Part shown: positions 7,367 to 62,119 of the stretch, piece by piece | Position numbering within the stretch: the stretch's first letter is position 1 | How the letters are laid out: each line of letters starts with the position of its first letter | Source: Nemertoderma westbladi | Lineage: Eukaryota > Animalia > Xenacoelomorpha | NCBI GenBank assembly: GCA_032718475.1 | Contig: JAUCBJ010000064.1 | Location: forward strand, 34,175 to 98,174 | DNA length: 64,000 nucleotides | Reading direction: 5' to 3' | The notes under the pieces: generated by a model | What the model was told of the DNA's origin: nothing | The model's input: the letters and a program-made list of their open reading frames with translations, nothing else | Databases searched by the model: none | Made by a program: the position numbers and the translations under genes

Positions 7367-8107
7367 CTGTAAAATATATAAGGATGAAATGGTAGTATGA
7401 AGCGAAACAATGTGAAGATATTAACTTCATATCAAACATACCATACAAAAATATTCATGTACATATTGAAATAAATGTTTGAAATAGAGAATATGAAGAT
7501 ATATATTTGACTGTATTACTTCATATAAACATTCTCAGCTGGTTTTTTTTTTAGACTGCTTAGTGCTTTTTTTAAATGACAAACTAGACAAAGATATAAA
7601 AAGACACATAAAAGTTATATAAAAAAGAAAAACCTCACCCACCACCAGGCTACTGTACAATGGTGTTTAGCTAAGCTTAGCTAGCTGTTAATTGTAGTGC
7701 GCGCGGGAATTTCAAAATTTTTAGTTTATGCTTGTATCAGCATTTGTCAAACGGATAGAGGCTTGAGCGATGTAGCCTGGTAGCTCACTCACCTGGTAGC
7801 TCACTCACCTGGTAGCATTCTACCTATATTACCGAACACATACACGTATGTATTGTGTAACGTAAATCAAACAGTTTAACAACATTGTGGTTCGCATATA
7901 TTTTAATTCTGTTTCAATTTTTATTGGGATTATTAGCTTTATTTTTGTATGATTGAATATTAAAATTAACGTTTCTCGTTAATTTAATTTAACGTTAAGA
8001 AAAAACGTTTCTCCATGTGAGGGGTGCATGGGGGTCCTAATAGATATTAAATGTAAACAACAAAAAAATTAAATGAAATGAAATGAAATTAAATAAAAAT
8101 TAAATGG

Positions 8108-11160: not shown

Positions 11161-11296
11161 TTATCCTATTGCCAATCCATCTAGAATATTCAGCTCGTAC
11201 TTAGTATGTAGTAAGTAATCCAACTGTCAGACTGTTGTTTTGCAACAAGACCGTTTAACTAGGCCTAACTGAAACTTGAAGTTTGTCTACGGGACC

Positions 11297-11689
11297 ATGG
11301 GCGATAAGGATGCAGGAAGCTGGAAGAGGTGTGGTCCTCAAGTTCTCTCTACCCTTGAGGCAATTGAGAAAGAACTAAAATCTCTAAATCTTTCTATTGA
11401 CTCGGTGATGTCTGATACCGCACTAATTCCTTCCCTTGTTAAAGAGATTGAGGTTCTGAAACGAGTGAACGACGATCTCAAAACTGATTTAGAGGAAGCG
11501 AAAACAGCAAACGATGATCTGGATCAATACCAGCGGCGTCACAATGTATTGATACACGGTGTTCCGGAGTCGCCGGATCCGGCCACGGAGCGCGCCAGGC
11601 TCTCAGCAATCCTTACTGAGCTTGGGCTTCTAATGTCCGAAGTTGATGTATACCACCAGCTGGGTTCGCCGATCTCCACCTGACCTCGT
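11297..11689 (+). mobile_element. LINE ORF1-like fragment (coiled coil plus RRM), 5' part; target of the BEL-1 insertion
   Basis: DDLDQYQRRHNVLIHGVPE is typical of CR1/L2-type ORF1; resumes after 26205. Confidence 0.7.
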
Positions 11690-12247
11690 TGTGACGGGAT
11701 CCAGGAAGGATCCCGGTTTATCCGGTTGTTTAGTTCACGCGTCCCTGCCATGTGTATGAAAGGTAAAAGGAGTTCCTGTCGTTCGTCGTATATAATAATC
11801 GGTTGTACGGATATATAGATATAGGGTATATAGATATAGGCATATGAATAATGTTGTCGTATACGGAAGGCGGGTTACGGTAATTAAAGTCCCGGTCCTT
11901 CCCTAGCTAAACTAACTAACCTAACTAGCACCAATATGATACTGAGATAACTGAACTGATATGATTACTGCCAACTGGCTATATTGCACGGGTTGGCCTT
12001 GTTACTCTACCTGATCGATGCTTCCCCCCTCTGATTGGTTGATACCCTTGTTGGCGCCCTTTGGAGTGTTCCCGTTCACCCCAGCTATTCTCTCTCGGTT
12101 AGGGGTTTGGCCCCTGACCCTTATTGTTTGTTCCTCCTTCCCATTTTGTTGGGGTGACACGAGTTGGTGATTGCCCAACCTCGTGGCCCCCAATATTGCT
12201 TATCGGCTTAACTTTATGGGGTGTTAGCGGGATTGAATAAGCTAACA
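11690..12247 (-). repeat. BEL-1 3' LTR
   Basis: Direct repeat of 25638-26205; by eye about 3 substitutions plus a poly-C length difference. Confidence 0.95.
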
Positions 12248-12256
12248 CTCCTCCCC
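12248..12256 (-). other. BEL-1 polypurine tract
   Basis: GGGGAGGAG immediately upstream of the 3' LTR on the minus strand. Confidence 0.85.
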
Positions 12257-12958
12257 ATGCTATCTTCCCGGTGAGAAGATAGCATCCACCTTAAGTGCGC
12301 TACAATCCCGCTGGATCCCGATCTAGTATCGGGTGTGGGGTGGAATTCTTTTCTCTCGTAGCTGGCTTTCCAGGCCGCTCCCTATGGGTATGATAACGCT
12401 ACCCTATATGCCTGGCGTCCCATGTCGGTACGATCACGCTCATCTCTCACGCGACTTTTGTTTCCCCAACACTTTCGCCCTATCTCTTCTCCACTCTCAC
12501 CCTAACTCTCTCATACCCTCGGACCTCCTCGTCCCTCACTCAGCCTCTTATTCTCCCCCCCCACACTAGAATTCCGTCCGCACTCTCTCCGCACTTCACA
12601 CCATTACTCCGTCCCTCAACCCCACTTCGACTACCTCATCCCTTCTGACGAATCTCCCCCCCTCTTGTGCCGTCGCACTCAAGAAGTGTGAAATCGTCTG
12701 GCGTCTCGTCCATAGTGCCATAGTCAGTTATCCCCCCAGTCCCAGTAGCTAATTGAGAAAGGTTGTATGACTATAGTACTTACTCCAAACGTATATTTAT
12801 TGCTAAACTACTGATCACTACGTACGTACATATAATTGCACTTATTTAATTATTTGCATCAGCTTGATTTATACTTAATAGTTCGTACGTCCCACGCGGC
12901 GCCTTCCAGGCGTACCACGTTCAAGTCTCAGTTCCTCCCCCCCCCCGGCCCTAGGAAC

Positions 12959-15505
12959 CTATCTGTTCCTCTGGGGATAGTTCCCCCTGGCGTCCTCTTC
13001 CCTGGGTCGTTTCTTGGTTACCACCGCTCCTCTGGGGTCCGCTTTCTGCTTTCGGACTTTCGCCGCCACCTCCCTGCTGATTCCGGTTGTTGGCTCCTTG
13101 GGCGCTGGTGTTATTAGTGCCCGATATCGCTTCGCCGGTGGCCCCTCAGAGTGGCCCTGTTGTCTCCCTCTGGTGGCGTCCCATAGGATCATTTTCATTG
13201 CTTGCGGCACGTGTTCCGCCAAGAAATCCCTAAACTCCCCTCGGTTCTGTGGCGTCCACCTGTCCAAATATCTTTGTGTGTTCATCACTCCGGCATAAGA
13301 CGCTGCCGTTGCTACCTCTTGATAGGTAAACGGTAGCCTCTGCTTTATGATTTCCATGTGAGCCTCCTGATTGATAAGGAAGAAACCCCACTTGAACTCC
13401 TGGGCCTTCATGCGCTGGCGCGTCATAGCCCCGACGTCGGCCCACTCCTCGAATCTCCTAAACTTCTTCTCGTCGTCCATCCAGTCGCACTGGCGTCTGA
13501 AGTGTCCCCGAAAGTTGCACTTTGGACATCGGTTATGCAACCGTGGACACGCCCCCATCCTGTGGCTCGGCTCTCGGCAGTAGAGACAAAAGGTTCCCTT
13601 TTGGAACCGGTACAAGCAGCTCCTTTCCTGGTGGGTCTGCATCCCACAGTAGTCGCAGCCGAGTACCAATGTCTCCCGCCCCACGTCGTCCTTCGTCCCA
13701 AGCGATCTCAGCGGTCTGTGGAGTCGCTGGTAGGCAAACTTCTCCACGTTTGTGTCTCTTTCTACATCGATCTCTCCACCCCTCTCGGGCATCGTCTCCC
13801 CGAATACTATTCGTGGTGCCGTCCCCGGTTGCTCGTCCAACCTGATAGTGCTCCCCGCGAAACCCATCGCCGGCTCCTCGTGCACCCAGGTCCGCTTGCC
13901 GGATCTGTTCCAGAAGGCCCTCGCCCCACTGGCCGTCACCACCCTACCGCCAACCCAGTCCGTGTCCGAGTGGCCTATCCTCTCGATGGGCGGCATCTCT
14001 CCGAACTCGTCGTCGTCCTCCTCCTCCTCTGGCAGTGGCTTCAACCCCGGTATCCCGATGAATCCACTATGTCCCTTCCCGCCTTGGCTCTCGCCCGTAG
14101 CTCTCCATCCCTCTAGTTCCCTTAACTTCCTTGGCGGTTGGTCGCCTTCGGCGCCCGCTGGTATGGGCATCTCTCGCAACCCCGACGTCGACTGTTTCGG
14201 TGATTCCACCATCCATCCCAGTTCTCGCCCTAGAGACTCCCCCGAACTCGCTGACAAAGTCCAATGAAGTTCGTCTAGGCCTGCCTGTTCCTCGAAGCCG
14301 TAACTCTGCATCCTGGCCTCCTCTTCCCTCTCCTCTGCTTCTATCCTCTCCCTTCTAGCGACTTCTTCCAGTCGCTTTACTTCTCGTCTATCCGTCTCTA
14401 GCTGCTCCCATCTCTGATACGGCGTATCTGTCTCCCCGTCTACCAGATGTCGGCTGTTGTAGTACACCGACTCGCCCTTCAGCCCCGGGTGGTCTACCAG
14501 ACCGTCGAAGGCAACTTTAAAGGCTCTCCTGTAGCTTAGGGGTGATCCCGATAACAGAAATGCTGCTGGTTCCCTCTCGATAACCACGGTCATGAATAAG
14601 TTAAGCAAACTTATCATCATCCAGTCCTCCTGCAGGATATATCGCTTCTGATATACCTTTATCGCTCCCCTGCGGAATTGATATACCTCTTGCTTTCCCG
14701 GTCTCGCTCCCCACTTTAGCGAGTTCGCTAGTTCTGCTCCATATTCTTCCCTGAACTTCCCCCAGTCCATCGGTTTGTGGCACATGAGCCCCAATAGCTG
14801 GCCCATTGCCACCGCCCCGCATTGGCCTGTGTTTTCGACTACCCCCAACCCATCCGGTGCCGTCATAGCCATGAAGACCTTCTGAATATCCAGGAGGTTG
14901 GTGGCGTCCGGACCGATGATTCTCTCCGCATCCTCGCGAATCGCCGATCCCACTTTCGTCGTCGACTCTTCTCTTACCAGGACTTGTACCGCTTTCGGCA
15001 ACCGGTTCAATTTCGGCCCGTCCTTCTTCCCATACGTTCCTAGATCAAATAGGAAGATGTCCCCATTTGGCGCGGCCAAATGTAGGACTATGGTCCTGGC
15101 CGACCCTGCCGATCCTCGTCTCGAACCCACCTCGTCTTCCACGGTCCCCTCGTCGTCTAGGATCATATATCCTCCCCTGTTGACGGACTCTGTGAATCTC
15201 TTCCAGTCCTTTCTCGGTGATTCCCTCGGGTACTTCGGAATCCCGACCTTCGCCTCGTCCCCTTTCACCACGTAGTGGAAGTGTTGGAAGATCGCGTTGT
15301 CCAGCGACGGCGTCCCGTAGGTCCCGACCAGCCGCTGTTCGTGCATCTCCCGGAAGTGATCCTGCAGCGCTCGTGCCACGTGACCCCTTTCCAACCTCTT
15401 GTAGTATCCTCTCGTCTTCTCTTCCGGATGCCTCTCGGTGAAATCCACCAGTATCTCCTTTCCTCCTGACTCCGCCTTTCTCTTTCTGATCAATTTGCTC
15501 GCCAT
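12959..15505 (-). CDS. BEL-1 accessory protein: DEDDy-type (WRN/EXD/Mut-7-like) 3'-5' exonuclease plus 3 CCHC zinc knuckles, 848 aa from the first ATG
   Basis: Uninterrupted ORF; ExoI ILDDEG, LHLAAPNGDIFLFDL, LPKAVQVLV...KVGSAIRED (ExoII), LLDIQ, ExoIII-like YILQED; knuckles CDYC..H..C, CLYC..H..C, CPKC..H..C. Confidence 0.8.
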   Translation of the reverse strand: MASKLIRKRKAESGGKEILVDFTERHPEEKTRGYYKRLERGHVARALQDHFREMHEQRLVGTYGTPSLDNAIFQHFHYVVKGDEAKVGIPKYPRESPRKDWKRFTESVNRGGYMILDDEGTVEDEVGSRRGSAGSARTIVLHLAAPNGDIFLFDLGTYGKKDGPKLNRLPKAVQVLVREESTTKVGSAIREDAERIIGPDATNLLDIQKVFMAMTAPDGLGVVENTGQCGAVAMGQLLGLMCHKPMDWGKFREEYGAELANSLKWGARPGKQEVYQFRRGAIKVYQKRYILQEDWMMISLLNLFMTVVIEREPAAFLLSGSPLSYRRAFKVAFDGLVDHPGLKGESVYYNSRHLVDGETDTPYQRWEQLETDRREVKRLEEVARRERIEAEEREEEARMQSYGFEEQAGLDELHWTLSASSGESLGRELGWMVESPKQSTSGLREMPIPAGAEGDQPPRKLRELEGWRATGESQGGKGHSGFIGIPGLKPLPEEEEDDDEFGEMPPIERIGHSDTDWVGGRVVTASGARAFWNRSGKRTWVHEEPAMGFAGSTIRLDEQPGTAPRIVFGETMPERGGEIDVERDTNVEKFAYQRLHRPLRSLGTKDDVGRETLVLGCDYCGMQTHQERSCLYRFQKGTFCLYCREPSHRMGACPRLHNRCPKCNFRGHFRRQCDWMDDEKKFRRFEEWADVGAMTRQRMKAQEFKWGFFLINQEAHMEIIKQRLPFTYQEVATAASYAGVMNTQRYLDRWTPQNRGEFRDFLAEHVPQAMKMILWDATRGRQQGHSEGPPAKRYRALITPAPKEPTTGISREVAAKVRKQKADPRGAVVTKKRPREEDARGNYPQRNR

Positions 15506-15984
15506 TCCGAACACTCACTCGCTCACCTGTAAGGTGGTGCCTTACCAAGGCGCAATACAGATGAGTGATGTATCTAAGATGTTCTGTACAGTCGGATAAT
15601 GGCCTATTTCTTACTTAACTGCGCCCTTTTAGCCTAAATTATTACTAATTAATTTTGAAGCTAGTAAATACACCCTAATTTCGATTTCTGTCCGGTACTT
15701 TTATTATGTTCCAGAATAACTTTCCTAGTGTTGCCATAATTTGTAACTTTCAGCCCTATTCTATTTATTTTAGTTTTAATTCTACTGTCCTACTACTTAC
15801 TATTGCCTATGGATTATTCTATTCTCTAATCCACATTCTGGCCTACTCTGTGGGCCTGTGCAGTACAGCAGTATGCGTCGTGTGGCCACACGATTTACCC
15901 AGCTGTACTCATATGCCCCCCTCTCCCTACTAACTGCTAACTAATATCTATATCCTATATACCCTTCTACCTCTTACTCTCTTT

Positions 15985-16700
15985 CTCTAACTAACGGTAC
16001 TACGTACCCTCTAACTCTCTAACTAACTAGCGGTACCACGTACCCTCTAACTCTCTAACTAACTAGCGGTACTACGTACCCTCTAACTCTCTAACTAACT
16101 AGCAGTACTACGTACCCTCTAACCCTCTAACTAACTAGCGGTACTACGTACCCTCTAACTCTCTAACTAACTAGCGGTACTACGTACCTCCTAACTCTCT
16201 AACTAACTAGTGGTACTACGTACCCTCTAACTCTCTAACTAACTAGCGGTACTACGTACCCTCTCTAACTCTCTAACTAACTAGCTGTACTACGTACCCT
16301 CTAACTCTCTAACTAACTAGCGGTACTACGTACCCTCTAACTCTCTAACTAACTAGGGGTACTACGTACCCTCTAACTCTCTAACTAACTAGCAGTACTA
16401 CGTACCCTCTAACTCTCTAACTAACTAGCGGTACTACGTACCCTCTAACTCTCTAACTAACTAGCGGTACTACGTACCCTCTAACTCTCTAACTAACTAG
16501 CGGTACTACGTACCCTCTAACTCTCTAACTAACTAGCGGTACTACATACCCTCTAACTCTCTAACTAACTAGTGGTACTACGTACCCTCTAACTCTCTAA
16601 CTAACTAGCGGTACTACGTACCTTCTAACTCTCTAACTAACTAGTGGTACTACGTACCTCCTAACTAACTGACTCTAGGTACTACGTACCTCTTAACTAA
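15985..16700. repeat. 36-bp tandem array (~19-20 units) inside BEL-1 between pol and the accessory ORF
   Basis: Unit CTAACTAGCGGTACTACGTACCCTCTAACTCTCTAA; no unique spacers. Confidence 0.95.
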
Positions 16701-16942
16701 CTTCTGCCTACTAACTGCGTACCTACTATGTACTATTATTTTATTTTTATTTTCTATATTTTTTTTTTTTATTTGCATGGGAAGGGCGTCTCGCCCTCAA
16801 TCCCATCCCCCTCAGTCCAATGCTTGGACGACTAAACTCTTCCCCAACTCCACTAAGGTGCCTCTTCTAGCAGACAGCATTTCCCTACAGCTCTCCTGTA
16901 GGTTTTTCTGTCCTTCGCACCTATCTTACCACTTACCACCTA

Positions 16943-19900
16943 TCACTCGGAGTAAGTGCTTACATCTCTCGCCAACCGCCATTGGTTGTTGATGATAGTA
17001 TCATCCGTGACGATTACGAGATCTCCCTCTCTTAACTCCCTGTTCGGCTTCCTCCACTTGCTTCTTTTATGGAGTGTGGGTAGGTATTCTTCTACCCACC
17101 TCCTCCAATACTCTGCGCTTATTGCTATAGCGACTTTCCAACTCTGGCGGGAGTGTATATCATCTGGGTCTACACCCCGCATATCGATGGTCGCTGGCCT
17201 TTCCATCAGAAAATGGCTAGGCGTCAGCACGTCTAGTGACTCAGGGTCATCATTCTCCGGATATAGCGGTCTGCTATTAATGATCCCCTCGCACTTCGCA
17301 AGCACTGTCCGTAAAACGTCCTCAGTGACCATGTGGGTGTTCATTAGCTTCGTCATTAGACGCTTTGAACTGCCCACCAGTCTCTCGACGCATCCTAGTG
17401 TATGTGGTGCATACGGCGTCCTTTTCTCCCACTTAACTTGTCGTCATCTCATGGTCGCCATGACTTCCTCCCCTTCCAAGATGTCCAAGGCCTCTGCCAT
17501 CTCATTCTCTGCGCCCACAAAGTTTGTGCCGTTGTCGCTGTATATCACTGCGATCGTCCCACCTTTGCGGTCTCTGAACCTTTCCAAGGCATTAATGAAT
17601 GCTGATGCGGTTGCATCTTGGGCGAGTTCTATCCCTACCGCCCGCGTGTTGTTACATACGAAGATGATACCGTAGCGTTTCTCCGTGTGCCGCATCACCT
17701 TGATCTTTATCGGCCCGAACATGTCCACACCGCAATGCGTAAATGGCGGGTCGTGCTGTCTTACTCTACTCGCTGGTAGTGGCGCCATCTCTTGTATGGC
17801 TCGCTCCTTCTTCGCTCGTCGGCAGGTCTGGCACTGCCCCACCACCGCTTCTACCTTCTTCCTCAACTGTTTGACCCAAAAGGTCCTCCTTATCTCTGTG
17901 AGAGTTCTGTTGGTGCCCCCGTGCAATATCGACTTGTGGGAGTCCCAGATAATCTGGTGAACTATTGGCGCTCCTGTTGGAATGATGATGGGTTTCGGTG
18001 GTATGATTATGCTGTTGTTGTATCCCACCCTAGAATTCATTACTAGAATCCCGTCGTCATTAAGTTGTGGCGACAGCGCGATCAGCTCGCTGTCCCGTCG
18101 AAGGTGTTGTTGGTTACCAACGCGTTCCACCTCGTCGCCATAGTTCTTCCGTTGTTCATAGCGGATGACTGCCTTGGCCGCTCCTTCCAGATCTATGTAT
18201 GTCTTGATCTTCTTGTCCTTGCCGACTCCCGCGAGGAAATTCCCGAAGGCTCTCCAGTACGCCACTAGTTTCTTGGTCTTATACCAACTAGAACTGTAGC
18301 TGAGGAGTTTATCCGTCGGGTTATCACACAGTTCTCGTCTTGGTTGCACGTCCCTAATCTCCCTCACCATCTGGGAGTATATCTCTTCTCCCTCTGAATC
18401 TCCTTCTTCTCCCTCTGACACTACTTCTGAGTCCGGATCCACCTTTCTCATCGGCGGCCAGGCCTCCTTATCGCTCAGAAATTGTGGCCCATGTTGCCAC
18501 AATACTTCCTTCTTCAAGAAAGTGTGGCGTACCACGCCCCTCGACAACAAGTCCGCTGGGTTCTCGTCTGTTGGGCAGTAGTGCCACCTTTCCAGTTCTG
18601 TGGTCGCCCTTATTTCGTCCACTCTATTTGCGACGAATATTGGGTATCTCGTCCTTTCGTTATGTAGCCAACCAAGCACTACCATGGAGTCCGTCCAGTA
18701 GTGTGTCTCCACTATGTTGGGAATAGTATCCACTAGGTAGGCTGTGGCTCTAACTCCTAGTCTCGCAGCTGTCAATTCTAACTTGGGAACTGATGCTGAA
18801 TCTGGCGGCGTTGACTTTGCTTTGCTAAAGGCTAGTCTGGGTTTATGAGCCCCCTCTCGTTGTACTAAATAGAGTGCCGCTCCGTACGCCTCCAACGACG
18901 CATCGGAGAACATGTGTAGGTCCAGATTCGTCATGTTCCCATCCGGGAAATACACTCGTGGCATGTTGTATGTTCCCATCTTCTCCAAGTCTCCTGTCCA
19001 CTTACTCCACTGTTTCTTGATTTCCTCTGGTACCTCTACGTCCCACTCATCCTTCAATTTGTATACTCTCTTGAGTATCTGTTTCCCCGTGACTAATAAT
19101 GGGGATGCTAGGCCTAGGGGATCGTATATCCTTGCTATGTACGATACATAGCCCCTCTTCGTGTGGATGTCTGCGCCCTCCTGGCTCAGCTGATACTTCA
19201 GTTCGTCTGTCTCTCTGTTCCACACGATTCCCAATGCCTTCTGTTGAGATTCTGTTCTCTTGTTCGCCATGTCCTGCCCTTTGGCTGTTGTGGGATTATC
19301 CATGGTCGATTCTGGCCTCTTGTCCTCTATCGCCTTGATAAATTCTTCCGAACTGGATTGGAATTTGGTCAGGTTAAAGCCGGATCCTTTTAGGATGTCG
19401 CGAACCTCGCGCCCCATGTCCAGTATCTCCTTAACCGTATTTCCAGACTCCATTCCGTCGTCTACGTAGAAGCCGCGTCAAATCATATCGACGGCCCTAC
19501 TGCTGTATCTGTCTTCCTTCCCCTTCACTGTGTCTCTCACTGCCATAGTCGTCGTAAATGAAGACGACTTGGCCCCCATGTTTTGTACTACCATCTTATA
19601 TGCCGGTATTATCGACGGTTCTTCCTCGCCGTTATACCATAAGAAGCGTTGACTGTCGCTATCTTCCTCCGTTACACGGACTTGGTTGAACATGCCTTCT
19701 ATGTCACACGTGAAGGCGTGTTTCCCATTTCTAAAACTAAGTAGGACCTCTATGCCTGAGTTGTATATGTTTGGGCCTTCTAACAGATAGTCGTTTAAGC
19801 ATTTTCCGTTGGTCTTTGCCGATGCGTCAACCACCATCCGCAGTTTACCTTTCTTTGGGTCTAAAGCCACGTGGAGTGGCAGGTAATATGTCCTGTCCGT

Positions 19901-21553
19901 GTTCGGTTCGTCGACCGGTAACTCCACGGCCCATCCTTTCTCGACGTACTTCTTAATCGTTCTGTGGATGTACTCATTCTTCTCGGGGCTCCGTTTTAGT
20001 GTTTGTTTCATCTTGCGGAGTCTCGTGAGTACCATCCCTCTATTATCGGGCAGCGGTATCTTCGGTAGTTTCCATACCATTCCTATAGTATACCGCCCCT
20101 CATCGCATGTCATCGATTCCTCCACGCTTTGTAAAGCCTGCTTGTCTTCTACCGAGGTCCCGACCCCGGTTTCTTTCAGTCCCTCGAAATCTTGTCTGAG
20201 CAGTCTTTTAAGCTGCTCCTCTGCTCCCTCATCACCCATTTCCTGCATTGTTCCCGCGAACATGCATCCTGATGTCTCCGACATCCTAAATGGTATCTTG
20301 CTCTTGATTGGGCCACTCAGCGTCCACCCGAATGGTGTTAATATCGCCACCGGGTCACACTGCTTGTCTTCGCCGAAGACCGTTTTCATTCTTTCGTGGG
20401 CCGTTGGGCAGTCCATTCCCACTATGATGGATACCTTCCTAACGTCCACACTTGGGATTGAGAAGTCAATGTCGTCCAGGAATTTATATTGCTCGACCTC
20501 GATGTTGGTTGGCCGCCTGGCATTGATATTAATTGACTCTATCACTTGGATGGGGTCGATGGTTGCCCCGTAGTCGCACCCCGGTGCCACAGCTGCAATT
20601 GCGCACCGTCCTGTTCTCATCTCCAGGATCTCATCTTTGCTAGAGATGGTTGTTACCGCCATTCTGCTTGGCCTCGTTCTCAATCCTATCTCTTCGGCCA
20701 CCCATTCCTCGACTAATGTGAAGGCAGCTCCACTGTCAACCAGCATTAGTGTTGTTACTGATCGATTGCCTTCCCCAATCACTCGCACGGGTACTACTCC
20801 AAGTAGCACCGTTCCTCTCTTCTTCGCCCCTTCTGTGCTCGTTGCCATCGTTTGGCCTCTCCTTTGACCGAACTTTACCGGCTTCTCCTTGTATTCCCTA
20901 GCTCTATGTCCACTCATCACACACCGTGAGCAGATTTTATTGCTCAACGCATAATCTATCTGATCTTGCCTAGATAGCGCCTGCCAGTACCTGCAGTTCA
21001 TGGTTTGATGAAGCGCATTTGCGTGTAGCTGGCATTTGCTCTTTGGGTCGTAGCCCTCCTTATACAGCGCATTGCGTATCGCAGCTGCGTTTGTTCCAAA
21101 GTCCCTACTATTCTTATTGTTTGCATTCGGCCTACTGGACGTACTGGGGTTATATTTATTCGTGTTGTTATTGTTCCCCTGTCCATTCCATGGTGTGGTC
21201 TTACCTTCGGCTACCTGTGGACTTGCAGTCCCCTGCGTCGCTGCGTATGGCAGCGATTGCCTTAGCTTTGGTAATGCGTTTGATGTATTATGCTCTGGTT
21301 TCGGTCTATGGTAATCCGTCTTTGGTCCCTTTCCCAGGCTATCTTCGCTATAGACTGGGTCGGTTATTAGTTCTGCTTCGTAGTTTAGGAAGTTTGACAT
21401 TTCTTCTAAACCCGGTTCCGCACCCTTTCTATCTCGAGTGGTGAAGGCGATTTTCCTCCACTTGTTGCGCAGCCGGATCGGTAGTGCCTGCACTATCGTG
21501 GTGATGTTATTGGACGCGTTGAGCTCGTATGGCGCGTCTAGCGTCTTTAGCAC
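16943..21553 (-). pseudogene. BEL-1 gag C-terminus and pol (aspartic protease, RT, RNase H, integrase), disrupted
   Basis: LVDSGA protease; CDIEGMFNQV and FYVDD RT (in-frame TGA at 19478); FSDAS...AYGA, YWTDS, NPAD RNase H; H..H..CQTC, GVDMFGP, SDNGTNF integrase; frameshift near 17445. Confidence 0.92.
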
Positions 21554-21813
21554 GATTAGCGCCTTTTCGACTTTGTTAGCAAATGTCTTAATGCTAACCC
21601 GATGTTATGCCTCTCAGTGTTTGCCTGATGATCTTGGCCGGGTGCCCGTATTCCCTGTCCAGTGCCCGCCATGCTGTCGTGAAGCCGCCCTCTATGCCTT
21701 GATATTGCCTCACGATATCGTATGCTGGGCCTCCCATGTATACTTGGAGATATTTTAGGCACTCCGCCTGCGTTAAGTTCTTTGTTAGTATTTCGTTACT
21801 GTACATACGCCGA

Positions 21814-21941
21814 GCACCAGTTAAATAACTGGGAGCAAAACTTGGGATAGGAGTAGCGCCCACCCCTACCCTCGGGTAGCAGCTATCGAAAGAGGAGCCT
21901 TCGGTTCGCCTCCGGCCTCGGCCGACTGTTTGCTTTTTGCT
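21814..21941. mobile_element. 128-bp structured insertion in BEL-1 gag with a 12-bp TSD
   Basis: TACATACGCCGA at 21802-21813 and 21942-21953; removing the insert plus one copy restores QFRRMYSNEIL. Confidence 0.85.
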
Positions 21942-23317
21942 TACATACGCCGAAACTGTAGATATTCTTCCGGCCTACTCCCATCGAATTTGAATGGTTC
22001 CACGGGCGGTAATTCGATCCTCGTTTTCAACGCATCGATTAACGTGGCCATCCCCATCGCCTGCGCTTCCAATGGGTTCGATGGGTGTTGTATGGTTTCT
22101 CCCGTCTGGTGCTGTCGGTCCGTCCTATTTCCTGATTTCCTTTGACTTGGGTATGTCATTGGGGGTAGCGGCCCCCTCCATATTTCTGTGTCACACGACC
22201 TATTTTCATCCAAGGGACTCGCTGTCCTTGCTCCTATCGGGGTATATTGTTGATATTGTGATGGGGGAATGTCACCCTGTCCCCCCCCACCAGTATGTTT
22301 GGTACTGGGGTTGATGTTAATATATTGGGGCCCATGCATCTATCCGCAATAATTCCCCCCTCCCCTGGGTATATGTTATATCCTTTGGTGCTGTAGTCAT
22401 ACTGCTGCACTGGTACCGGTATAGGCCTATCCGCTTCTGGCCTACCTACCGGAATGTATTCCGCGACTTCCGGGTTTAATCCCGTCGTCCGCGCTATCCT
22501 ATCGCCTACATTGCCTCTGTCAGCATGGCCTATGGTATGTGCAGTAAGGCCTACAGTATGTCCTACAGTCTGTATGTGTTGCTCGGGATCGAAGTTTATT
22601 CTTCTCGAATAATCCTCCCCGCGGCTACCGTATTCTCGATCGGCAGGCATATCCCGTCGGAAAGTTTCTCTTCGACCCCCTCTACTGCTCTCATCTTCGT
22701 GCCGGTACATCATGTACCCCTCTCTCGACGCTTAGTGCGCCTCGTCGGGTCGCGTCTCTCCGGGGCGACGGCAATCTCCCGTAGTTCGACTCCAGCGACT
22801 CTCTCCTTCCATCTCAACTACCGACGGCTCACTATCCGTCCTCGCTCTTCTATCGTTTGCGGCGATACTTCTCCTACCGTCTTCTCTTCTTCTTCTATCA
22901 GTGCAGTATTCCCGCTCGTGAGATCTCTCGTCGACCTCCCGGTTAAACTCCACTGTTCTTATTCCCTCTTCTGATCGGGCTCGACGCTCCGTCCGCCCTC
23001 TCGCGACGTCAACCTGCCTCTCTCTGCTCGATCGCACGCCACTGGGGATACTCGCGATCCCCCTATTACTCTCCGTCGCCGGGTGTTGCGGTTTACCTAC
23101 TTCGGCCCGCGCATTATCCGTTGACGCCTGCGGGGCACTCTCTGCCCCCCCCCCCCCCTTTCGCCGCTAACTTGCTGTTGTGGGGTTCCTGTAATCCCCC
23201 CCCCATTCGCCACATCTAACTTCGCTATCTCTCGCTCCGCTGCTATATCCCTCTCTAGTCGACACATCAACCCTACAGCGGCTGGGTCCATTCACCCCCG
23301 CCCCTCCCTCTGCTATT

Positions 23318-23492
23318 GTGTGGCCTACCAGGCCCTCTACTCCCTGCCTACCAACTACGTGGCCTACCAGGCCCTCTACTCCCTGCCTACCAACTACGTG
23401 GCCTACCAGGCCCTCTACTCCCTGCCTACCAGCTACGTGGCCTACCAGGCCCTCTACTCCCTGCCTACCAGCTACGTGGCCTGCCAGGCCCT
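23318..23492. repeat. 39-bp tandem repeat (~4.5 units) in BEL-1 gag
   Basis: Unit GTGGCCTACCAGGCCCTCTACTCCCTGCCTACCAACTAC, encoding GLVGHVVGRQGVE on the minus strand. Confidence 0.9.
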
Positions 23493-25628
23493 CTTCGGGT
23501 TGGCTCAACCCCGCCACCTCCGGCCTACTAACTATACGGCCCACCAGGCCCTCACCTGCTGGGTTGTACTGTACACGCCCGACGTGTTCACGTTAATAGC
23601 ACCCATATTGGAAACGGGATTACTCTGTTCGTTCAAAGTAAAATCATTTGAATTATCTTGCGCAACTACACTATCTGAATTATTTTGTAGATTCGGGCTT
23701 GGATCATTATTTAAATTATTTGGATTATTTTGCGTAATTGCATTACTTAAATTATTTTGTAAGTTCGAATCCGGGTTATTATTTTGATTATTTTGATTAT
23801 TTTATGTAACTACATTAATATTAGAATTATTTTCTACATTAATATTAGGATTGTTCTGATTTAAATTTAAATTACTACCACTAGGCAAAGTATTTCCTGC
23901 AATAAAGGTTTGATTAGGATTATCCAATATGGTACTATTAATATTAACCACGTCTACTGTACCATTATTATTACCCCCCCCCCCCCCCCCCCCCCCGCCC
24001 GTAAGGTCACACCAGTTTCGTGTCTGTCGTGCGGTCCCTGTGAGTGGAGTATTAATAAACGTATCAACAGCCCTCGGCTCCTCGAAAATATTCGAGCCTG
24101 CCCCGCTCTCAGATGCCCCTACCCGCGCCAGTCCCACCTCGCGCGTGTGTACAGCTTCATACTCTACGAGTTTGTCTCGCTGTTTCTCCAATTCTTTTCG
24201 CTCACGCTCCACTCTTGCTATTTTATCCATAGCCTCCCGTTCGCTCTGCTCGGCCAATTCCATCTCTCTCCTAATCCCCTCCCTTCGCCTCGCCTCACGC
24301 TCTCTGCGTTCACTTCCCTCCCTCGCCTCACGTTTCTCGCGTTCCGCCTCACGTTCCTTTCGTTCACTTTCCCACTTCGCCTCACGTTTCTCGCGTTCCG
24401 CCTCACGTTCCTTTCGTTCACTTTTCTCTCTCGCCACACGCTCCTCTTGTTCCTTCAACTCTATTTCATCATACTCCCTAAGGCTCCTCACGGCCCTTTC
24501 GGCCCTCTCTCTTGTCTCTCTAATCGACACCATTTCCCTCTCTAGCAGCACTCTCCCCTCCTCTAGCCGTCTACCTACTTCTCTATTACCTTGCACTGCT
24601 AGATTGAGACGGTACCTAGCGTCTATCTCTCTCACCCGTATTTCTTTCGTGGAGGATGTAGCAGACTTATCGGTTGTGACGGATTCCCTCCGCCTTCCCG
24701 ATCTACTAACTTTCCCCCTCCTCCCGGAACTCCCTCCAACCGACGAGACCGAATCCGCAGGGTCAACCTCGGATTCGCCCTCCTCAGGTCTGTTCCAACC
24801 CACTAATTTTATACCCCGGGCATCGATTAAGTATGGTCCTATGTACACTACACTAGGTTGTATACCCCCGTGCCGCCATGAGTCATACAGTTCCTCAGCA
24901 ACCCTTGTCGCTCTCTCCTCGGCCAATTCTCTCTGCCCGAAGCGCATTAGATAATATAGATGTCTGTCCGACTTACCTAGTCCTGACTTTAGTTTTACCT
25001 CGTCTATCGTTTTCCCCTTTCTGGCCTCCTCTAGTAGTCTCCGGGTCGCGTTGTAGGCCCGTCGAAGTTGATCGGAGACCCCGACGTCCTCGTCGCCGAC
25101 CCCTCCTCCGTCTCTCCTGGTTCGACGTCGTACCGGCGGCCCCACCGTCGCCGTTCCGGTGGGCCGTCCGTCGCCCTCGGCCTGTGCCTGGCCGGCGACA
25201 TCGGTATTGACATCTCCGTCGTCTCTCCGGGTCCGGCGTCGTACCGTCGGCCCCACCGTCACCGTCACGGTGGGCCGTTTGTCGCTCTCGGCCTGTGGCT
25301 GGCCCGCGACATCGGCACGTCGACCCTCGTTCCGTGTCGACTCGTCTCTTTCTCCCTCGAGCTCTTTCTCTCTATCCTCCGACTCGACTCCCCCTCCTCT
25401 CGACTCGGCTTCTGACTCCAGACGGTCCCCCTCATCTTGAACTTCCGGGTCACCCATTACCGATGGCTCCGGCGTCGTGGGCCTATACCGCCTGGTCGCG
25501 GCCTCGCGGATCGTTTGTTCTTCGTCCGGGGTCCGCGTCGGTGTTGTCTCTCCCGACTGACTCATCTCTCTTCTGTAGATTGGTGGTTGGTGGTTGCTGA
25601 GTTTAGCTAGCTAGGGCGGCAGCTCTGA

Positions 25629-25637
25629 TTTAATTAC
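25629..25637 (-). other. BEL-1 primer-binding position, non-tRNA type, complementary to its own LTR
   Basis: Minus-strand GTAATTAAA abuts the 5' LTR; the minus-strand LTR contains TTTAATTAC (25828-25836; 11880-11888). Confidence 0.65.
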
Positions 25638-26205
25638 TGTGACGGGATCCAGGAAGGATCCCGGTTTATCCGGTTGTTTAGTTCACGCGTCCCCGCCGTG
25701 TGTATGAAAGGTAAAAGGAGTTCCTGTCGTTCGTCGTATATAATAATCGGTTGTACGGATATATAGATATAGGGTATATAGATATAGGCATATGAATAAT
25801 GTTGTCGTATACGGAAGGCGGGTTACGGTAATTAAAGTCCCGGTCCTTCCCTAGCTAAACTAACTAACCTAACTAGCACCAATAAGATACTGAGATAACT
25901 GAACTGATATGATTACTGCCAACTGGCTATATTGCACGGGTTGGCCTTGTTACTCTACCTGATCGATGCTTCCCCCCCCCCCCCCCCTCTGATTGGTTGA
26001 TACCCTTGTTGGCGCCCTTTGGAGTGTTCCCGTTCACCCCAGCTATTCTCTCTCGGTTAGGGGTTTGGCCCCTGACCCTTATTGTTTGTTCCTCCTTCCC
26101 ATTTTGTTGGGGTGACACGAGTTGGTGATTGCCCAACCTCGTGGCCCCCAATATTGCTTATCGGCTTAACTTTATGGGGTGTTAGCGGGATTGAATAAGC
26201 TAACA
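25638..26205 (-). repeat. BEL-1 5' LTR
   Basis: Direct repeat of 11690-12247, upstream of gag. Confidence 0.95.
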
Positions 26206-26480
26206 CTTGTCGTAGTTCTGCTAATGTTTCCGATTCTCGACCATTAATCATCCGATTCCTTGGACATGGAGCGGCAACTTTTGCTTTAAAGAACAAGAAG
26301 AAGTTAAACAATCCGGCTTACCTTACCGAGCATCTAACCACGCGTCGGTTCAACCTTCTTAATCTTAATGAGGCTCGGGAGCTAAAAAAATCGCAATGTA
26401 ATCCATTCTGCCTTTACGATTAACGGGAACATCCTCATCAAAGTTTCGGATTCCAGTCGCACTAAAAAGGTAAATAACAA
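26206..26480 (+). mobile_element. LINE ORF1-like fragment, 3' part
   Basis: Translates RPLIIRFL...KKKLNNPAYLTEHLT, the usual continuation of the motif at 11297-11689. Confidence 0.65.
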
Positions 26481-27423
26481 AACAGAGTTGGAGCGGTTGG
26501 TTCAGGGTTCAGGTAGAGCTGTTCCTGTGTCCATTCCGCGGTCGACTCCCTCAGGCTCCCCTTGGCAGAGTGTTGGTCGCGGCCCCTCTGTCTCACCAGC
26601 TCTCTCCGATCCAAATCAATCCGGGAACGGCTCCCAGATCTCAACAATCACCACCCCACTCGGTAGCGACACTGCTCCACTGGTTAACTCAGGGTTCTTC
26701 ACTCCCATCAATAACCTGTGATATGTACCAAGATTGCAAGATATGTACTCATGTGGTTAGTTTAGCTGGTAATCAACCAGTTTTGTTTGTGTTACGGTAA
26801 CTAATTAGCCATATGGTTCCAGGCTTTGTCACTTATCTCCTGTTTAGAAATCTTATCTTTGAAAACATATCACTTATCTCCTTTCACCTTATCACCTATC
26901 TCCTTTATTGTCACTTATCTCCTGTTTAGAAATCTTATCTTTGAAAACATAAAACTCTTTTTTTAGGCTTAATGATGGAAACGCTCCCAATTTATTAATT
27001 TTTTTTTCTTTTTATTACATAATTATTATAGCTCGACTTCTATGATTATCAGTTTAATGTAATAACTAAAATTTAAATTATATACCCTACCGGTACTTAA
27101 GCTAGTAAGTCTAACAGTCTGGGATTTTCATATGTGTACATGATCCATATACACCTACTTTCGTAAATGGTTTTGAATTGATCTGAATTGATGGTTTTGA
27201 AAATGGTGCATAAAAATACATACTGCACAATACTGCATAATATAAATAAATCACAATTTACCGGTAATTTATTTTACATTGTCTTATGTAAATCCGGAAA
27301 TCAGTAAATTAATGGACGGCAGGATAATACATGTTTAAAGTCATATAATATAATTGACTTGCCTAGGTAGCATAAATGGTCTAACTCTGTACAGTAGTTT
27401 ACAATAAATCACGTGTATATTAA

Positions 27424-29981: not shown

Positions 29982-32900
29982 TTTTTTTTTTATTTTTTTT
30001 TATTTTTTATTTATATTATTATACATTATGTAAAAACAATAACAAATACACCAAACAATGTACCGGTATAAAGGTATTGTCCAACATAACATATAGGATT
30101 ACCCCTAAAGCTTTGCAGCTTATTTCCAAGGGGGTCCTTTATGTTACTTGGTTACAAATACAATATTACACTACGCTAACCTAAAACCAATATAAAACGT
30201 AATTACACTATGTACATGTACAACTTTACCGAGAGCGTGACAATGTCCGACTCAACGATAAAGATGTAATGTACAGAACAATTTAATATAAAACATAATT
30301 ACAGTCTAAATAGTAAATAATTAATAAACTAATAACTTACTGTAGGACTATTGTACCTATTTTTACATTGCACACGGAGGTGAGATTTAACTGCAGATTT
30401 AAAAGAATGTTGATTATTTAGGTTTTTAATTTCATTAGGCAGAGCGTTCCAATTTTTTATGCCGTTAAAAAAGAAAGTATCAGATTCAAAGGATTTACAA
30501 TTCGGGAGGTAGAAGTTTGAAGCACTAGCTCTGGTACTGTAAGAGTGTGTATCGCGTACTCTGTTGAATTTTTGTTTTAGGTAATTGGGACATTTACCAT
30601 TATACACTTTATGCACATGGTTAAGGCGTAGCTGCTTAACTCTACTATCTAAGTTAAGTAGTCCAGATTCAGAAAAGTCATCTGGAGTTAGGTGGTGCCT
30701 AGGTTTGTAGTCTTTAATAAATCGTACTACTTTATTATGAGCTACTTGTAATTTACATTTAAGCTGTTTGGTTAAGCCTTCATACCAAGAAGAGCACGCA
30801 TAGTCCATGTGACACTGTATTAAAGAAGAGCAAAGTAACTTGCGGGAGTCGGTGTTCAAACTATTTTTATTTCTGTATAGAAACCTAAGCCTACTGTTAA
30901 CTTTCGAGAAAATATTTTTCACTGTACTTTCTCCTGATAAGCAGTTATCCAATGTGGCGCCTAAATATTTAACTTCCTTTTTATTTTCAATCTTATGTCC
31001 ATTACTAGTGACTTCAAACTTAGTTACCTTCTTTAACTTTCTTTTGGAACCAAACAAAATACTTTCAGTTTTACCGTAGTGAATGGATAGCTTATTATCA
31101 ACCAACCACTCATTACAGGATTCTAGAACTGCACTTAACTTTTGGGAAATATGGATAGGATCTTTATGAGAGAAAATAAGAGCACTGTCGTCGGCATATA
31201 AAATGAGTTTAAAATCGGGATCTATACTACTTATCATATCATTTACATAGCATACAAAAAGCAGAGGACCTAATATACTACCTTGCGGTACACCACAGGT
31301 AATATCTTGTACAGTAGACTGCGATTTGCTAATGACTACAGTTTGACCTCTGTCTGACAGGTAGGACTTGAACCAGTCTATAGAACCTACACCTATCAGG
31401 CCTAACTTACCAAGCAGAATTTCGTGATCTACAGTATCGAAAGCCTTTTGTAGGTCCAACATTACCATACCAGTATATAAACCCTTTGCGTTATTACATC
31501 TAATTGTATCAGTTAAGTTAATAAGGCAGGTGTCTGTAGAATATGATTTACGAAAACCGGACTGAAGTTCATAGATCAGATTTAGCCTACTAAGATGTGC
31601 CTCCAGCTGTAGAAAAACAGAACGTTCTAGAATTTTAGATACAATACATAAGATACTAACAGGTCTGTAATTACAGGGTTCTACTTTACTATTCTTTTTA
31701 TACAGAGGAACAACCTTAGCTAATTTCAGTTCGTCTGGTACTACATTATCTACGATAGAGTAATTAATAATAAAAGTAATAGGCACTTTAAGTACTTCAG
31801 CACCATCCTTAAGAAAACGGGCAGGTATTAGATCTAGACCGGTACTTTTTGAGGCTGATAGGCTAAGTAGATTTTTAAAAACGAAATCCTCAGAAACGGG
31901 TTTTAAAAATAACTTTTCTGAATTTTGTAACTTTTCTAAATAAAAATTATTTAGAGTTTCGGACCCTATACTATATTTATTACTTGATAACGGTAATTTC
32001 TTAACTAAATTAGAGGCAACATTAGTAAAATAATTATTAAATAAATTACTAACTAGAGTATGATCATGAATCAGCTCACCGTTATCTTGCAGAACAATAT
32101 TCGATTTAGATTTAAGGTTTTTATAACCTAAAGATTTTAGGGTAGACCATAGACTTTTTGGATTATCTTTATTCTCACTTATTTTGTTGTACAAATATTC
32201 AGATTTAGCTTTTTTTATTTCCCGTTGGACAAGGTTTCTATATTTGCAGTAATTATTATAATCAGCTAAAACACGGTATTTCCTAAATTTATACAAATAG
32301 TTATCTCTTTCTCTGATATTACTAAGAATACCCGAGGTCATCCAGGGCTCAGTGCGTTGTTTAAGACTAATTTCTTTAATTGGTGCTACAGTATTAAGTG
32401 CCTTTAAAAATATATCTTTAAAAACAGTGTACGCAAGGTTAATGTCAGCGGCCTTAAAACAGGGTTCCCAGTCAGAATTAACTAACAAACTTAAAAAGCG
32501 TTCCTTGCTGTAATTTTTCATAGACCTAACTGTTACTGTTTTATGATCCCCGAAAAAAGATTTTTGTGTCTTTCTTGTGCAAAAAACTATAAAATGATCG
32601 CTTAGACCTATAGGTAAAACCCCAGATTGAGAAATAATATCGGTATTATTACAAAGGATGTGATCTAGTAAAGTAGAAGTTTTACTGGTAATTCTGGTAG
32701 AATCTCGAATAATTTGTTTTAAACCAAACAAATTTAAAATACTTTGGTACTGTTTACAGATGGGGGATGCTTTGTGATGGTAACAGATATTAAAATCACC
32801 TAAGAAATATATTTCACAGTCTGACCTAAGATTACATAAAATTGTATTTTCAAAATTTTGCAAAAAATCTGATTGTTTAGGGGGCCGATATAAAGTACCG

Positions 32901-33843
32901 ATTAAAATAGGTTTAGTTTTAGGAAGTAAAAGTTCCACCAGTAAAACTTCGTCACAAGTCTCTAAATCTTCCCTACGATTAAAAGCTAAATCACATCGAA
33001 TGTAAGTACAGACACCACCACCGTGTCTGTCCCTATCCTTACGTAAAACTACGTAATTATCAATATAAATTTCTCCATCAGAAACACTATCATCGAGCCA
33101 AGTTTCAGAGATTGTTAAAACTGCTGGGTTGGATTTATTGATTAAAATACGAATTTCGGAAAGTTTTGGAAGCAGAGATCGTGCGTTTAAGTGCAAAAAA
33201 TGCAGACCTTTTTTCTTAAAAAAATTAAAAGTTTCACTCTCAGCATCACTTGGAGTTTGCAGAGGCGATGTGAGAAATGAGTCGTCGGTTTCTGATTCTA
33301 AAATTGTATCATGAAAGGGAAGTTCGGTAAAAATACAGCTATTGCAGAGAAAACTTGGTTCAAGATTGTTTCTGGTGGAGAATAAATTACTGCGTTTCCT
33401 ACGGTAACATTTTAAATGTACAAATGTGTCACAACTCTCGCATTGGACGATCTTACTCCGAGAGTTTGTTCCTCGTTGACAGACGGGACAGTTGATCTTT
33501 GGGGCCCGCGTCCTGCTGGGTCCTGGGTTGGTCTCAATATCCCCAGCCAGAGACAGTAGACAGAGTTTAGCGATTAGGCCTCTAGATCGTGGAGAGGAGA
33601 CCCAAGATCTTCTTCCCCGACGAGAGCAGTAGAGGCTAAATCCACTCGTCGACCACATCTCCGTCGATTCGGCGCGGCAGTTCGAAACGGTAGCGACAGG
33701 GTGTTCCGCAAACCAGTCCAATACGGGTATTGGGTGGGTTGCAGGGTTACCCCGCGGATCGGATGGTTCTGCCACAACGAAACGACCCAGAACGATGAAA
33801 ACTGTGGAGATTAAGAGCGGGGACATTGTGCTGTCTGGCTGGC
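29982..33843 (-). mobile_element. Nested young LINE (CR1/L2/Crack group)
   Basis: A-rich tail at 29982-30010; TSD AGGTA (29977-29981, 33844-33848); single intact ORF. Confidence 0.9.
30329..33826 (-). CDS. Intact LINE polyprotein: N-terminal peptide, 2A-like, PHD, APE endonuclease, RT
   Basis: [14 protein letters not shown]; CPVC..CESC..H..C..CNSC; HLNARS, SETWL, GDFN, SDH; PQGS, YADD. The first ATG inside the element is at 33826. Confidence 0.92.
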
Positions 33844-36819: not shown

Positions 36820-37090
36820 AATCGGTTACCATCATCCACTATGTCTTATTGGTCATAATTAACCACTCAGTCAAATTTATTACAATTATCGACTATGACA
36901 CATCGGTTAATATTTATCCACTCTGATTCGGTCGCATTTATCTACCTTGAAATATTGGTCACAATTTTTCCACTCTTACTCATCGGTTTCAATTATCCAG
37001 TCTGTCACATCTTTTAGAATTATACCCTCTGCGTAACATCGGTTACAGTTATCCACTTTGACATATCGACCACAATTATCAACTCTAAAA
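36820..37090. repeat. Degenerate short tandem repeats in the LINE 3' UTR
   Basis: Recurring CATCGGTTACAATTATCCACT-like units. Confidence 0.6.
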
Positions 37091-42650: not shown

Positions 42651-42914
42651 GCACGAAGTAACGGGACTAGCTACTGTATGTAAATAATTGTTTAACGTGT
42701 AAGTAAGACATTTCATATGTCCTATAGAAGGCATTCTAGAGAAAATGAGCAAATAAAATTGGCAGCAGTGTTCAGTAAAACTGAACGGACACAGACGGTG
42801 ACTATTTATTGAAAACAATTTCCGTAATTTTGGCCTTTTTGAAGGCCCGTGTTTCGTGAGAGATGCCTTACCAGTACTTCATTTGTCTGACCATGAGAAT
42901 CAAACATACAATAT

Positions 42915-47186: not shown

Positions 47187-48351
47187 TGTTCGCGCTTTCA
47201 GACCTTTAGCAGTTTAACCTGCCAAATTGGGATGTCTTTTAGATGATAGATAGTCTTTAGCCTATGACAAGTATTTGATACACTACATTAGCCGAAGCCA
47301 GTTTATGCGCGATCATTCACCCGCTGGATACACCCGGGAGACTGGATTCGGAAGCCTAACCGTATTGCGGGGTAGGCCTACTGTATTATTCGACTGATCG
47401 TAATATATAATCTCTGACAAATTTTATTCACTTTCGGGAAATATTAACAGTTCCTTTAGGACGTGGCGCTCTAAATATGTAAACAGAGTTATGACTTAAA
47501 CTAAAAACAACGGGATGGCTATAGATTCACGTATATGGCGCATTCTTTAGGAGATGCTTTGTTATCAGTCACAATCATACACAATACTGCACAATGCTGC
47601 AAACCGATCTGCCGACCTTCACTAATTTTAGTCACATATAAAGAGAACAACAGACAATACATGTAGGGCCTATAAAATAGCATTAGATTCACTTCAAACC
47701 ACTTAATGTAAGTCGCAATCGTTATATGTAACCAGTCTCTCTAACCTTTAGTATATCAAGACTATTGGGGTGTCTGATTATTTATCAGTATTCCAAATAT
47801 AATATTCCATCAACAAATATAATGAATAACCGACAGTAAAAGCAGTAAAATGTTAAGGTATAAATTGATATGATCGATTTGGTTAGTATGATTAGTTAAG
47901 TGAGATAACAGATATACGTTCTATAATTAAGCCTACTAATGTTGAGCTAAAGACTGAAACACGGAGGTTCCAAAGCCGGTGTTCTTAGGCTGTGGACAAA
48001 ATCACACACTGACTCAACTCCACGAGTTTCTATATACAATCTCTAACACAGAGGCAAAAAACGCTCTGATTGGTCGACCGAACAAAGAAGGAACAGAGAA
48101 CAAAGAAAAGCTACACGTGTACAGCATCAGCTGTTAGCCGTCGTCATGGTAGCTACACTGTTTCAAGAGGATCCAGCGTATTGCGTCATAGAATTGCTAA
48201 TTATGTCCGCTAAAGTACACATACAGAAGAAATGACTTTTATGTCCTCTAAAACACCAGTACAGTAAGGACACGGCCTTTTATGCCTGTTAAACCAACTA
48301 CAGAGTACTTTACCGGGAAAATAACCGGCTAATTCCGCAAAAGTCTTTACA
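47187..48351 (-). repeat. BEL-2 3' LTR (~1165 bp)
   Basis: TG...CA; first 479 bp match 62120-62598 with about 5 differences by eye; both ends confirmed by the solo LTR; minus-strand TATA-like (~48033) and TCAGT (48008-48012). Confidence 0.9.
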
Positions 48352-62107: not shown

Positions 62108-62119
62108 TATATCTGTTAT
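62108..62119 (-). other. BEL-2 primer-binding position, non-tRNA type, complementary to its own LTR
   Basis: Minus-strand ATAACAGATATA abuts the 5' LTR; the minus-strand LTR contains TATATCTGTTAT (47905-47916). Confidence 0.7.

Follow-up and report, generated by a model that had tools for sequence, protein, structure and literature searches.

Element 1, a BEL/Pao-type LTR retrotransposon on the minus strand of a 64-kb window of Nemertoderma westbladi DNA (the whole stretch analyzed here, to which all positions refer), probably primes its minus-strand DNA with a fragment of ~73 nt cut from the 5' end of its own RNA. We put the probability of this reading at roughly 0.6; the start of the fragment, the cut, and the cutting enzyme are predictions. 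Self-priming is likely because there is no tRNA-type site after the 5' LTR and a complement of the element's own LTR is found there. On sequence comparison, the complementarity between leader and LTR is real and well beyond chance once the extended duplex, a second family in the same window, and the relatives of element 1 are combined. The coordinates of the features are listed in Table 1.

Table 1. Features of the two BEL/Pao elements in the 64-kb window and relatives with an intron-type complement
Feature	Position or loci	Strand	Remarks
Element 1, whole	11685..26210	minus	Includes 5-bp target duplication, 4/5 bases matching
Element 1, 5' LTR	25638..26205	minus	568 nt, TG...CA
Element 1, 3' LTR	11690..12247	minus	558 nt, TG...CA; the 9-mer is also present, at 11888-11880
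Element 1, polypurine tract	12248..12256	minus	
Element 1, gag-pol region, in several pieces	16943..25565	minus	DUF1759, aspartyl protease, Peptidase_A17, integrase, DUF5641
Element 1, extra ORF, 851 aa	12959..15514	minus	3'-5' exonuclease-like N-terminal part (lead only), CCHC-like knuckles
Element 1, leader to first ATG (25565)	25562..25637	minus	Degenerate reverse complement of LTR 25828-25900
Element 1, primer-binding position GTAATTAAA	25637-25629	minus	Flush with LTR end, no TGG
Element 1, 9-nt exact complement TTTAATTAC	25836-25828	minus	Predicted 3' end of self-primer at 25828
Element 1, LTR segment pairing in blocks with the whole leader	25828..25900	minus	Aligned complement 25883-25828; predicted pairs to ~25898; predicted primer ~73 nt
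Element 1, promoter-like layout	25897..25996	minus	CCAAT 25996, ATATAG 25932, initiator-like TCAGT 25907 and 25902
Element 1, TATATA runs (rival promoter candidates)	25737..25787	minus	Downstream of the 9-mer; three boxes
Element 2, BEL/Pao	47187-62598	minus	Gag-like ORFs, integrase, two extra ORFs
Element 2, 5' LTR, truncated to ~480 nt	62598-62120	minus	
Element 2, 3' LTR	48351-47187	minus	1165 nt
Element 2, primer-binding position	62108..62119	minus	Flush with truncated 5' LTR; next 47 nt free of TGG
Element 2, exact 12-nt complement in 3' LTR	47905..47916	minus	2/5000 shuffles
Extra ORFs homologous between the elements	12959-15514 (element 1), 48430-50661 (element 2)	minus	Knuckle region, E 3e-7
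Intron-type non-TGG relatives	L162, L139, L182, L194, L051, L047, L133, L145, L197, L167, L024, L121		

Structure and classification of element 1

Element 1 spans 14.5 kb. Pfam gives a Peptidase_A17 match (E 1e-40), and the domain order, PR-RT-RH-IN, is of the BEL/Pao type. The RT has no Pfam match; its position and its alignment with the relatives identify it. Identity to the closest database proteins is no more than ~28 to 36%, the top matches carrying the BEL/Pao domain set. The TG..CA LTRs, the polypurine tract, and the target duplication (4 of 5 bases) likewise agree with BEL/Pao. The ICTV profile of the family gives an 18-nt primer-binding site (PBS) for tRNA-Arg or tRNA-Gly and a genome of 4.2 to 10 kb, with tRNA priming only (PMC8742986). 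With canonical Belpaoviridae (Semotivirus), element 1 shares the DUF1759 Gag, the protease, the Peptidase_A17 RNase H region, the integrase with DUF5641, the PR-RT-RH-IN order, the TG..CA LTRs, the 5-bp target duplication, and the polypurine tract; it differs from them in the absence of a TGG site, in its 14.5-kb length, and in an extra ORF. Judged by its predicted proteins, element 1 belongs to BEL/Pao (Belpaoviridae), and the missing tRNA-type PBS does not remove this membership.

The two LTRs are 99.5% identical, differing by 3 substitutions and a 10-nt indel in a G run. Given this identity, the insertion is probably recent, and the primer-binding position was probably usable recently. The near-identical LTRs stand alongside a broken coding region, with frameshifts in gag and in-frame stops in RT and integrase, a combination that suggests either that the RNA was already defective before its mobilization in trans or that the sequence contains errors.

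The extra ORF has no Pfam match and no homolog among database proteins of 468 to 1490 aa. Its N-terminal part gives an atlas lead (0.92) to 3'-5' exonucleases, which is a lead only. The LTR elements Juno and Vesta of bdelloids carry a DEDDy exonuclease as ORF3 (PMC5408684, in excerpt). Element 1 is similar in that pol is followed by an additional ORF whose N-terminal part may be 3'-5' exonuclease-like (the lead just mentioned, with no Pfam match); Juno and Vesta represent other LTR lineages.

The primer-binding position

According to the original prediction, the first bases after the 5' LTR pair with a short segment of that same LTR in the geometry of a minus-strand primer. The complement, 9 nt long, is indeed exact. 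The 3' base on the primer side lies 190 nt from the LTR end and pairs with the first base outside the LTR, and the next base is mismatched. This geometry holds, priming itself being what it would imply. A landing site for the 3' end of a tRNA is missing from the usual place: the sequence after the 5' LTR is free of TGG until 181 nt downstream, and nothing there corresponds to the tRNA-Arg or tRNA-Gly 3' end specified in the ICTV profile. No tRNA genes are found within the window, and Rfam searches return nothing at gathering level in 11000-27000. In the fetched loci, ARAGORN makes five predictions, most of them doubtful, which match the PBS over at most 7 nt.

Taken alone, the 9-mer was predicted to be modest evidence, and shuffles and foreign LTRs agree (p ~0.006 to 0.04). 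A flush run of at least 9 nt appears in 29 of 5000 dinucleotide-shuffled LTRs. In the looser search that was also applied to the relatives, which admits offsets of 0 to 6 and joins across splice sites, a run of 9 nt is reached by 2 of 150 shuffled leaders, and on foreign LTRs the leader of element 1 does so in 2 of 56 cases. The 9-nt core is shorter than the usual 11, A/U-rich, and forms a duplex of -6.5 kcal/mol. Its extension to 11 bp via one bulged base is possible on paper and has probability 0 in folds.

The complementarity extends far beyond this core. Aligning 59 leader bases with 56 LTR bases (the reverse complement of 25883-25828) yields a score of 41; the mean of 2000 shuffles is 17.1 and their maximum 30, so that none reaches the observed value. 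The corresponding z is 5.8, as compared to at most 2.8 in 39 relatives with a TGG-type site. Another leader match, near 7300-8200 with a score of 36, was rejected as a gappy low-complexity alignment.

A chance match of the 9-mer in A/T-rich sequence, with the PBS of element 1 degraded, would fit the p values of the 9-mer alone and an unrelated extra copy of it at 1294-1302. This explanation is highly improbable in view of the extended complement, the 12-nt complement in element 2 (Table 1), the group pattern in the relatives, and the 99.5% identical LTRs, which indicate a site that was probably usable recently.

Element 2 and a related lone LTR-like sequence

The window contains a second BEL/Pao element, whose integrase is 29 to 35% identical to that of element 1. 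Its 12-nt pairing is deduced from the 3' LTR copy, the 5' LTR being truncated, and its LTR boundary is the CA end shared by both copies. When leaders and LTRs are swapped between the two elements, the complements shrink to only 5 and 5 nt. No protease-RT-RNase H region is found between its gag-like ORFs and the integrase that directly follows them. The extra ORFs of elements 1 and 2 are homologous, and their N-terminal part shows a tentative resemblance to 3'-5' exonucleases.

In the leader of element 2, the LTR end and PBS are repeated at ~62061. A lone LTR-like sequence at 40650-41754 (plus strand) is ~79% identical to the element 2 LTR and keeps the CCAAT, the initiator-like TCAGT, and a variant of the complement region.

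Survey of BEL/Pao relatives

A single element 1 protein used as the query finds no related loci in viral contigs, and a 43-row alignment of relatives is without a usable conserved stretch. Relatives were gathered with a degenerate RNase H motif, which gave at least 184 loci with the metagenomes covered in 2 of 64 parts; among the matches listed, 168 are BEL/Pao by tblastn. A flanking repeat is present in 58 of the 114 long-enough matches among those listed, and 23 further regions were fetched by place. Eleven loci were set aside for contig-end overlap, duplication, or a wrong boundary (three of these were reused with inferred ends), and 6 relatives without a CA end were left out. Among the matches listed, this leaves 44 elements with the end fixed by two LTR copies: 39 of the TGG type, including one that carries an altered base and was classed by inspection and several that are non-independent copies of one family, and 5 non-TGG elements. 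Adding 13 non-TGG elements with the LTR end placed by eye brings the latter to 18, element 1 included.

In the TGG elements, the TGG-type site lies 0 to 7 nt from the LTR end, 31 of 39 share one identical 12-mer, and the self-complement is 4 to 7 nt in all 39 (among the matches listed). The five non-TGG elements with two-LTR ends have complements of 9 (element 1), 11, 11, 11, and 11 nt. Among the matches listed, the complement measures 9 to 13 nt in 16 of the 18 non-TGG elements and at least 11 nt in 13 of them. L128 and L160 have only 5 nt; L128 is without the LTR middle and the end of L160 is uncertain, and both are kept in the denominator of 18. Swapped leader-LTR pairs reach 9 nt in 13 of 304 cases and 11 nt in one. 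All 18 non-TGG sites differ in sequence, 12 of them beginning with GT, and their exact block is located 0 to 5 nt from the LTR end, within the range of the tRNA sites (0 to 7 nt). Between families, then, the complementarity is conserved, the family of element 1 being represented by a single copy: it is 12 nt and flush in element 2, and it is present in these 16 non-TGG elements, element 1 among them.

In 12 of the 18 non-TGG elements, the full complement arises only when a GT donor in the LTR is joined to an AG acceptor, that is, across a predicted intron (Table 1). L139 and L182 show matched changes in the PBS and in the upstream exon. Together, these features point to pairing at the level of the processed RNA. 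Strong GT..AG signals are found in 13 of 18 non-TGG LTRs versus 4 of 39 TGG LTRs. The splice donor pattern was widened after L145 had been viewed; for L194 and L133, the required donor-side bases were worked out before their inspection. To be inherited, the LTR intron must escape removal from the RNA's 3' copy. The complement is followed within 1 to 34 nt by an AATAAA-type signal in 9 relatives, which would place it in R.

Element 1 has no LTR intron and is grouped with the unspliced L125, L152, and element 2. A splice-built primer was rejected for it, as there is no AG acceptor before the 9-mer and no GT(A/G)AG consensus donor in the LTR. An acceptor-like CAG is present in its 3' LTR only and looks like CpG decay.

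A further relative, L122:4289-4800, has a degraded LTR end and is left out of these counts; on visual inspection, a spliced complement of 12 nt begins ~8 nt away from where its LTR seems to end. In two non-TGG relatives (2 of 17 loci scanned), L145:3117 and L197:5370, a perfect TGG-type 18-mer resembling a tRNA PBS precedes the polypurine tract by ~80 to 110 nt; it lies close to the 3' LTR and not behind the 5' LTR. Many prokaryote genome records (GTDB MAG records G001 to G019, behind L119 to L184) contain animal-type BEL/Pao elements with full LTR pairs, a probable contamination with host DNA.

Tree placement

In a 65-row tree, element 1 falls into a 25-row group (SH-aLRT 99) and a 23-row subgroup (SH-aLRT 86) that includes all self-complementary elements. 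It sits on a long branch (1.27). A 36-row tree places the TGG element L076 between element 1 and the non-TGG group, with a support of 39. The likelihood is higher when element 1 is constrained to the non-TGG group (p-AU 0.64); a constraint to the tRNA-Arg-type clade costs 27.6 lnL and is not rejected (p-AU 0.115). These Pol trees are quick, non-mixture trees, in which the position of element 1 beside the non-TGG group is not secure.

Folding of the leader

The leader of element 1 comprises 72 nt up to the gag AUG (25565). Predicted pairing reaches this AUG, with partners at 25892-25898 (P 0.85 to 0.97); the AUG bases themselves pair with 25895-25897 at P 0.90 to 0.97. The pairing stops at the initiator-like motif near 25900. 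When the modeled transcript begins at 25845 or farther upstream, the ~30 outer base pairs form and the 9-bp core has an ensemble probability near 0. Forcing the 9-bp helix costs 4.3 to 5.9 kcal/mol for these starts (4.8 in the long transcript). In the relatives, the helix folds with probability 0.9 to 1.0 in L162, L051, L197, L167, L024, and L047; folding does not support it in L125 and L194, nor in L139 and L133 with long starts. The poor core folding weakens the case for self-priming without refuting it, as low fold probability is not decisive when several clearly matching relatives (the last four) also fold poorly.

A fold that is stable in its outer blocks, AUG included, and not in its core would suit a regulatory or packaging structure that, for example, hides the AUG; the primer would then be a different RNA, for instance a tRNA fragment. 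Half-tRNA priming does exist in copia elements (PMC6317226, in excerpt). This is an unlikely explanation: a site set by a tRNA should be conserved across families, as is the TGG type with its shared 12-mer, whereas each of the 18 non-TGG sites has a different sequence, which in 16 cases corresponds to the LTR of the same element. Furthermore, the exact block lies at the distance from the LTR end that is typical of tRNA sites.

Starts closer to the core behave differently. If transcription begins at 25836-25838, the probability of the 9-bp helix is 0.56 to 0.93, and for starts at 25836-25840 forcing it costs nothing. Priming could then follow Tf1 more closely, with transcription starting at ~25836-25840, a primer consisting of the first 9 to 13 bases only, and the upstream blocks being untranscribed relics. 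Tf1 itself uses its first 11 bases, RNase H cutting between bases 11 and 12 (PMC7175516, in excerpt), and its structure includes two flanking duplexes (PMC10085805, in excerpt). Such a short primer seems quite unlikely in element 1. There is no TATA-like motif ~30 nt upstream of 25836, and the spliced relatives need the upstream exon, so their primer fragments would be longer. The complement upstream of the 9-mer, which only 2 of 300 shuffles match, would be left unexplained. The flanking duplexes are absent as well: shuffles do as well or better in 294 of 300 cases when the leader is compared with the downstream LTR, and in 177 of 300 when the U5 end is compared with the bases that follow the primer. 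The three-duplex "pretzel" of Tf1 was rejected for element 1, both flanking duplexes being no better than shuffles.

Promoter-like motifs and predicted start

The CCAAT, the TATA-like ATATAG, and the initiator-like TCAGT in the element 1 LTR are presumably promoter motifs. They predict a transcription start at 25905 or 25900, 73 to 78 nt from the end of the 9-mer and ~65 to 70 nt upstream of it. The same layout of CCAAT, TATA-like motif, and initiator upstream of the complement is common to elements 1 and 2. The element 1 LTR contains no AATAAA.

The upstream TATA-like motif is weak, and the 9-mer is followed downstream by three TATATA boxes. Were one of these, at 25780-25742, the real promoter, the complement would be in U3, at the 3' end of the RNA only, and could pair with the 5' leader to circularize the genome. 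We consider this very improbable, given that the CCAAT-ATATAG-TCAGT layout is common to element 2, that CCAAT and TCAGT recur in the related lone LTR, and that the AATAAA-type signals in 9 relatives place the complement in R; it would also leave the primer unexplained.

Proposed mechanism of self-priming

In the preferred reading, priming by a ~73-nt fragment of the element's own RNA, transcription would start near 25900, as the motifs suggest, and the first ~73 RNA bases would fold back onto the leader. A cut after 25828, made by the element's own RNase H if the analogy with Tf1 holds, would free a 3' end sitting on the first base outside the LTR. The reverse transcriptase would then copy U5 and the remainder of R. 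Plus-strand synthesis would presumably copy the primer back into the PBS, keeping the first 9 to 13 nt exact. Such back-copying would account for the exact 9- to 13-nt matches, for the PBSs of relatives that read across splice junctions, and for the resemblance of the 72-nt leader to the predicted primer copied in reverse and then decayed. It is speculative that the modeled duplex over the gag AUG may switch the RNA between translation and replication.

A broader scenario is tentative and rather doubtful. An animal BEL/Pao branch may have swapped tRNA priming for a long self-made 5' fragment that is cut out and recopied into the PBS in each cycle. In many families, the primer would be assembled by host splicing of an LTR intron, with the intron kept in the 3' copy. 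Here, the whole leader up to the gag AUG would be a decayed reverse copy of the unspliced ~73-nt primer, priming would be coupled to translational shut-off, and the exonuclease-like protein would be a candidate trimmer.

Relation to known self-priming elements

Self-priming has been described for Tf1/sushi, Tj1, Tcn1, and TAR/Houba/Osr-1 (excerpts of PMC6317226, PMC4600332, PMC7175516, PMC5341516, and PMC10085805). PMC3601003 (in excerpt) brings it up solely as a possible ancestral state and for chromoviruses. For TAR/Houba/Osr-1 (Ty1/copia) and Tcn1 of plants, it was predicted from LTR-PBS complementarity alone, and the survey threshold was at least 10 bp within 0 to 5 bp of the LTR end (both from an excerpt of PMC6317226). 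In the literature searched, mostly titles and the openings of abstracts, there is no report of self-priming in BEL/Pao, and a prior mention is possible. The available parts of PMC554778 and PMC3118150 hold no mention of PBS, tRNA, or priming, and those of PMC8220671 only generic ones.

Tf1/Tf2 of Schizosaccharomyces pombe, Tj1, and Tf1/sushi are Ty3/gypsy chromoviruses, whereas element 1 has BEL/Pao domains. Like Tf1, element 1 has a PBS that adjoins the LTR and is complementary to LTR-derived sequence (9 nt flush, plus blocks). In contrast to Tf1, it has a 9-nt core and one long hairpin in which the leader pairs with LTR sequence upstream of that core, its predicted primer is ~73 nt as opposed to 11, and its relatives build the complement across a predicted intron. 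TAR/Houba/Osr-1 and Tcn1 belong to other superfamilies; measured against the survey threshold, the exact core of element 1 (9) is one short, whereas that of element 2 (12) passes.

If the proposed mechanism is correct, self-priming would have arisen independently once more in a BEL/Pao branch, beyond the Tf1/sushi-type gypsy and some plant copia elements to which the papers searched confine it, and the architecture of the RNA, with either a long hairpin or a splice junction, would differ from the Tf1 pretzel. Such elements would escape control by the host tRNA supply and tRNA fragments, and their priming would explain why PBS-based annotation misses them.

Other features of the window

Element 1 is apparently inserted within an ORF at 11273-11683 (plus strand), which has no relevant Pfam match and which we take, from its motif, to resemble LINE ORF1. 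LINE RT fragments are found at 30329-33853, 35481-36821, and 45154-47217. Tandem arrays are located at 15862-16801 (36-nt unit, between pol and the extra ORF of element 1), at 23281-23514 (39 nt, in gag), and at 42795-44430 (30 nt).
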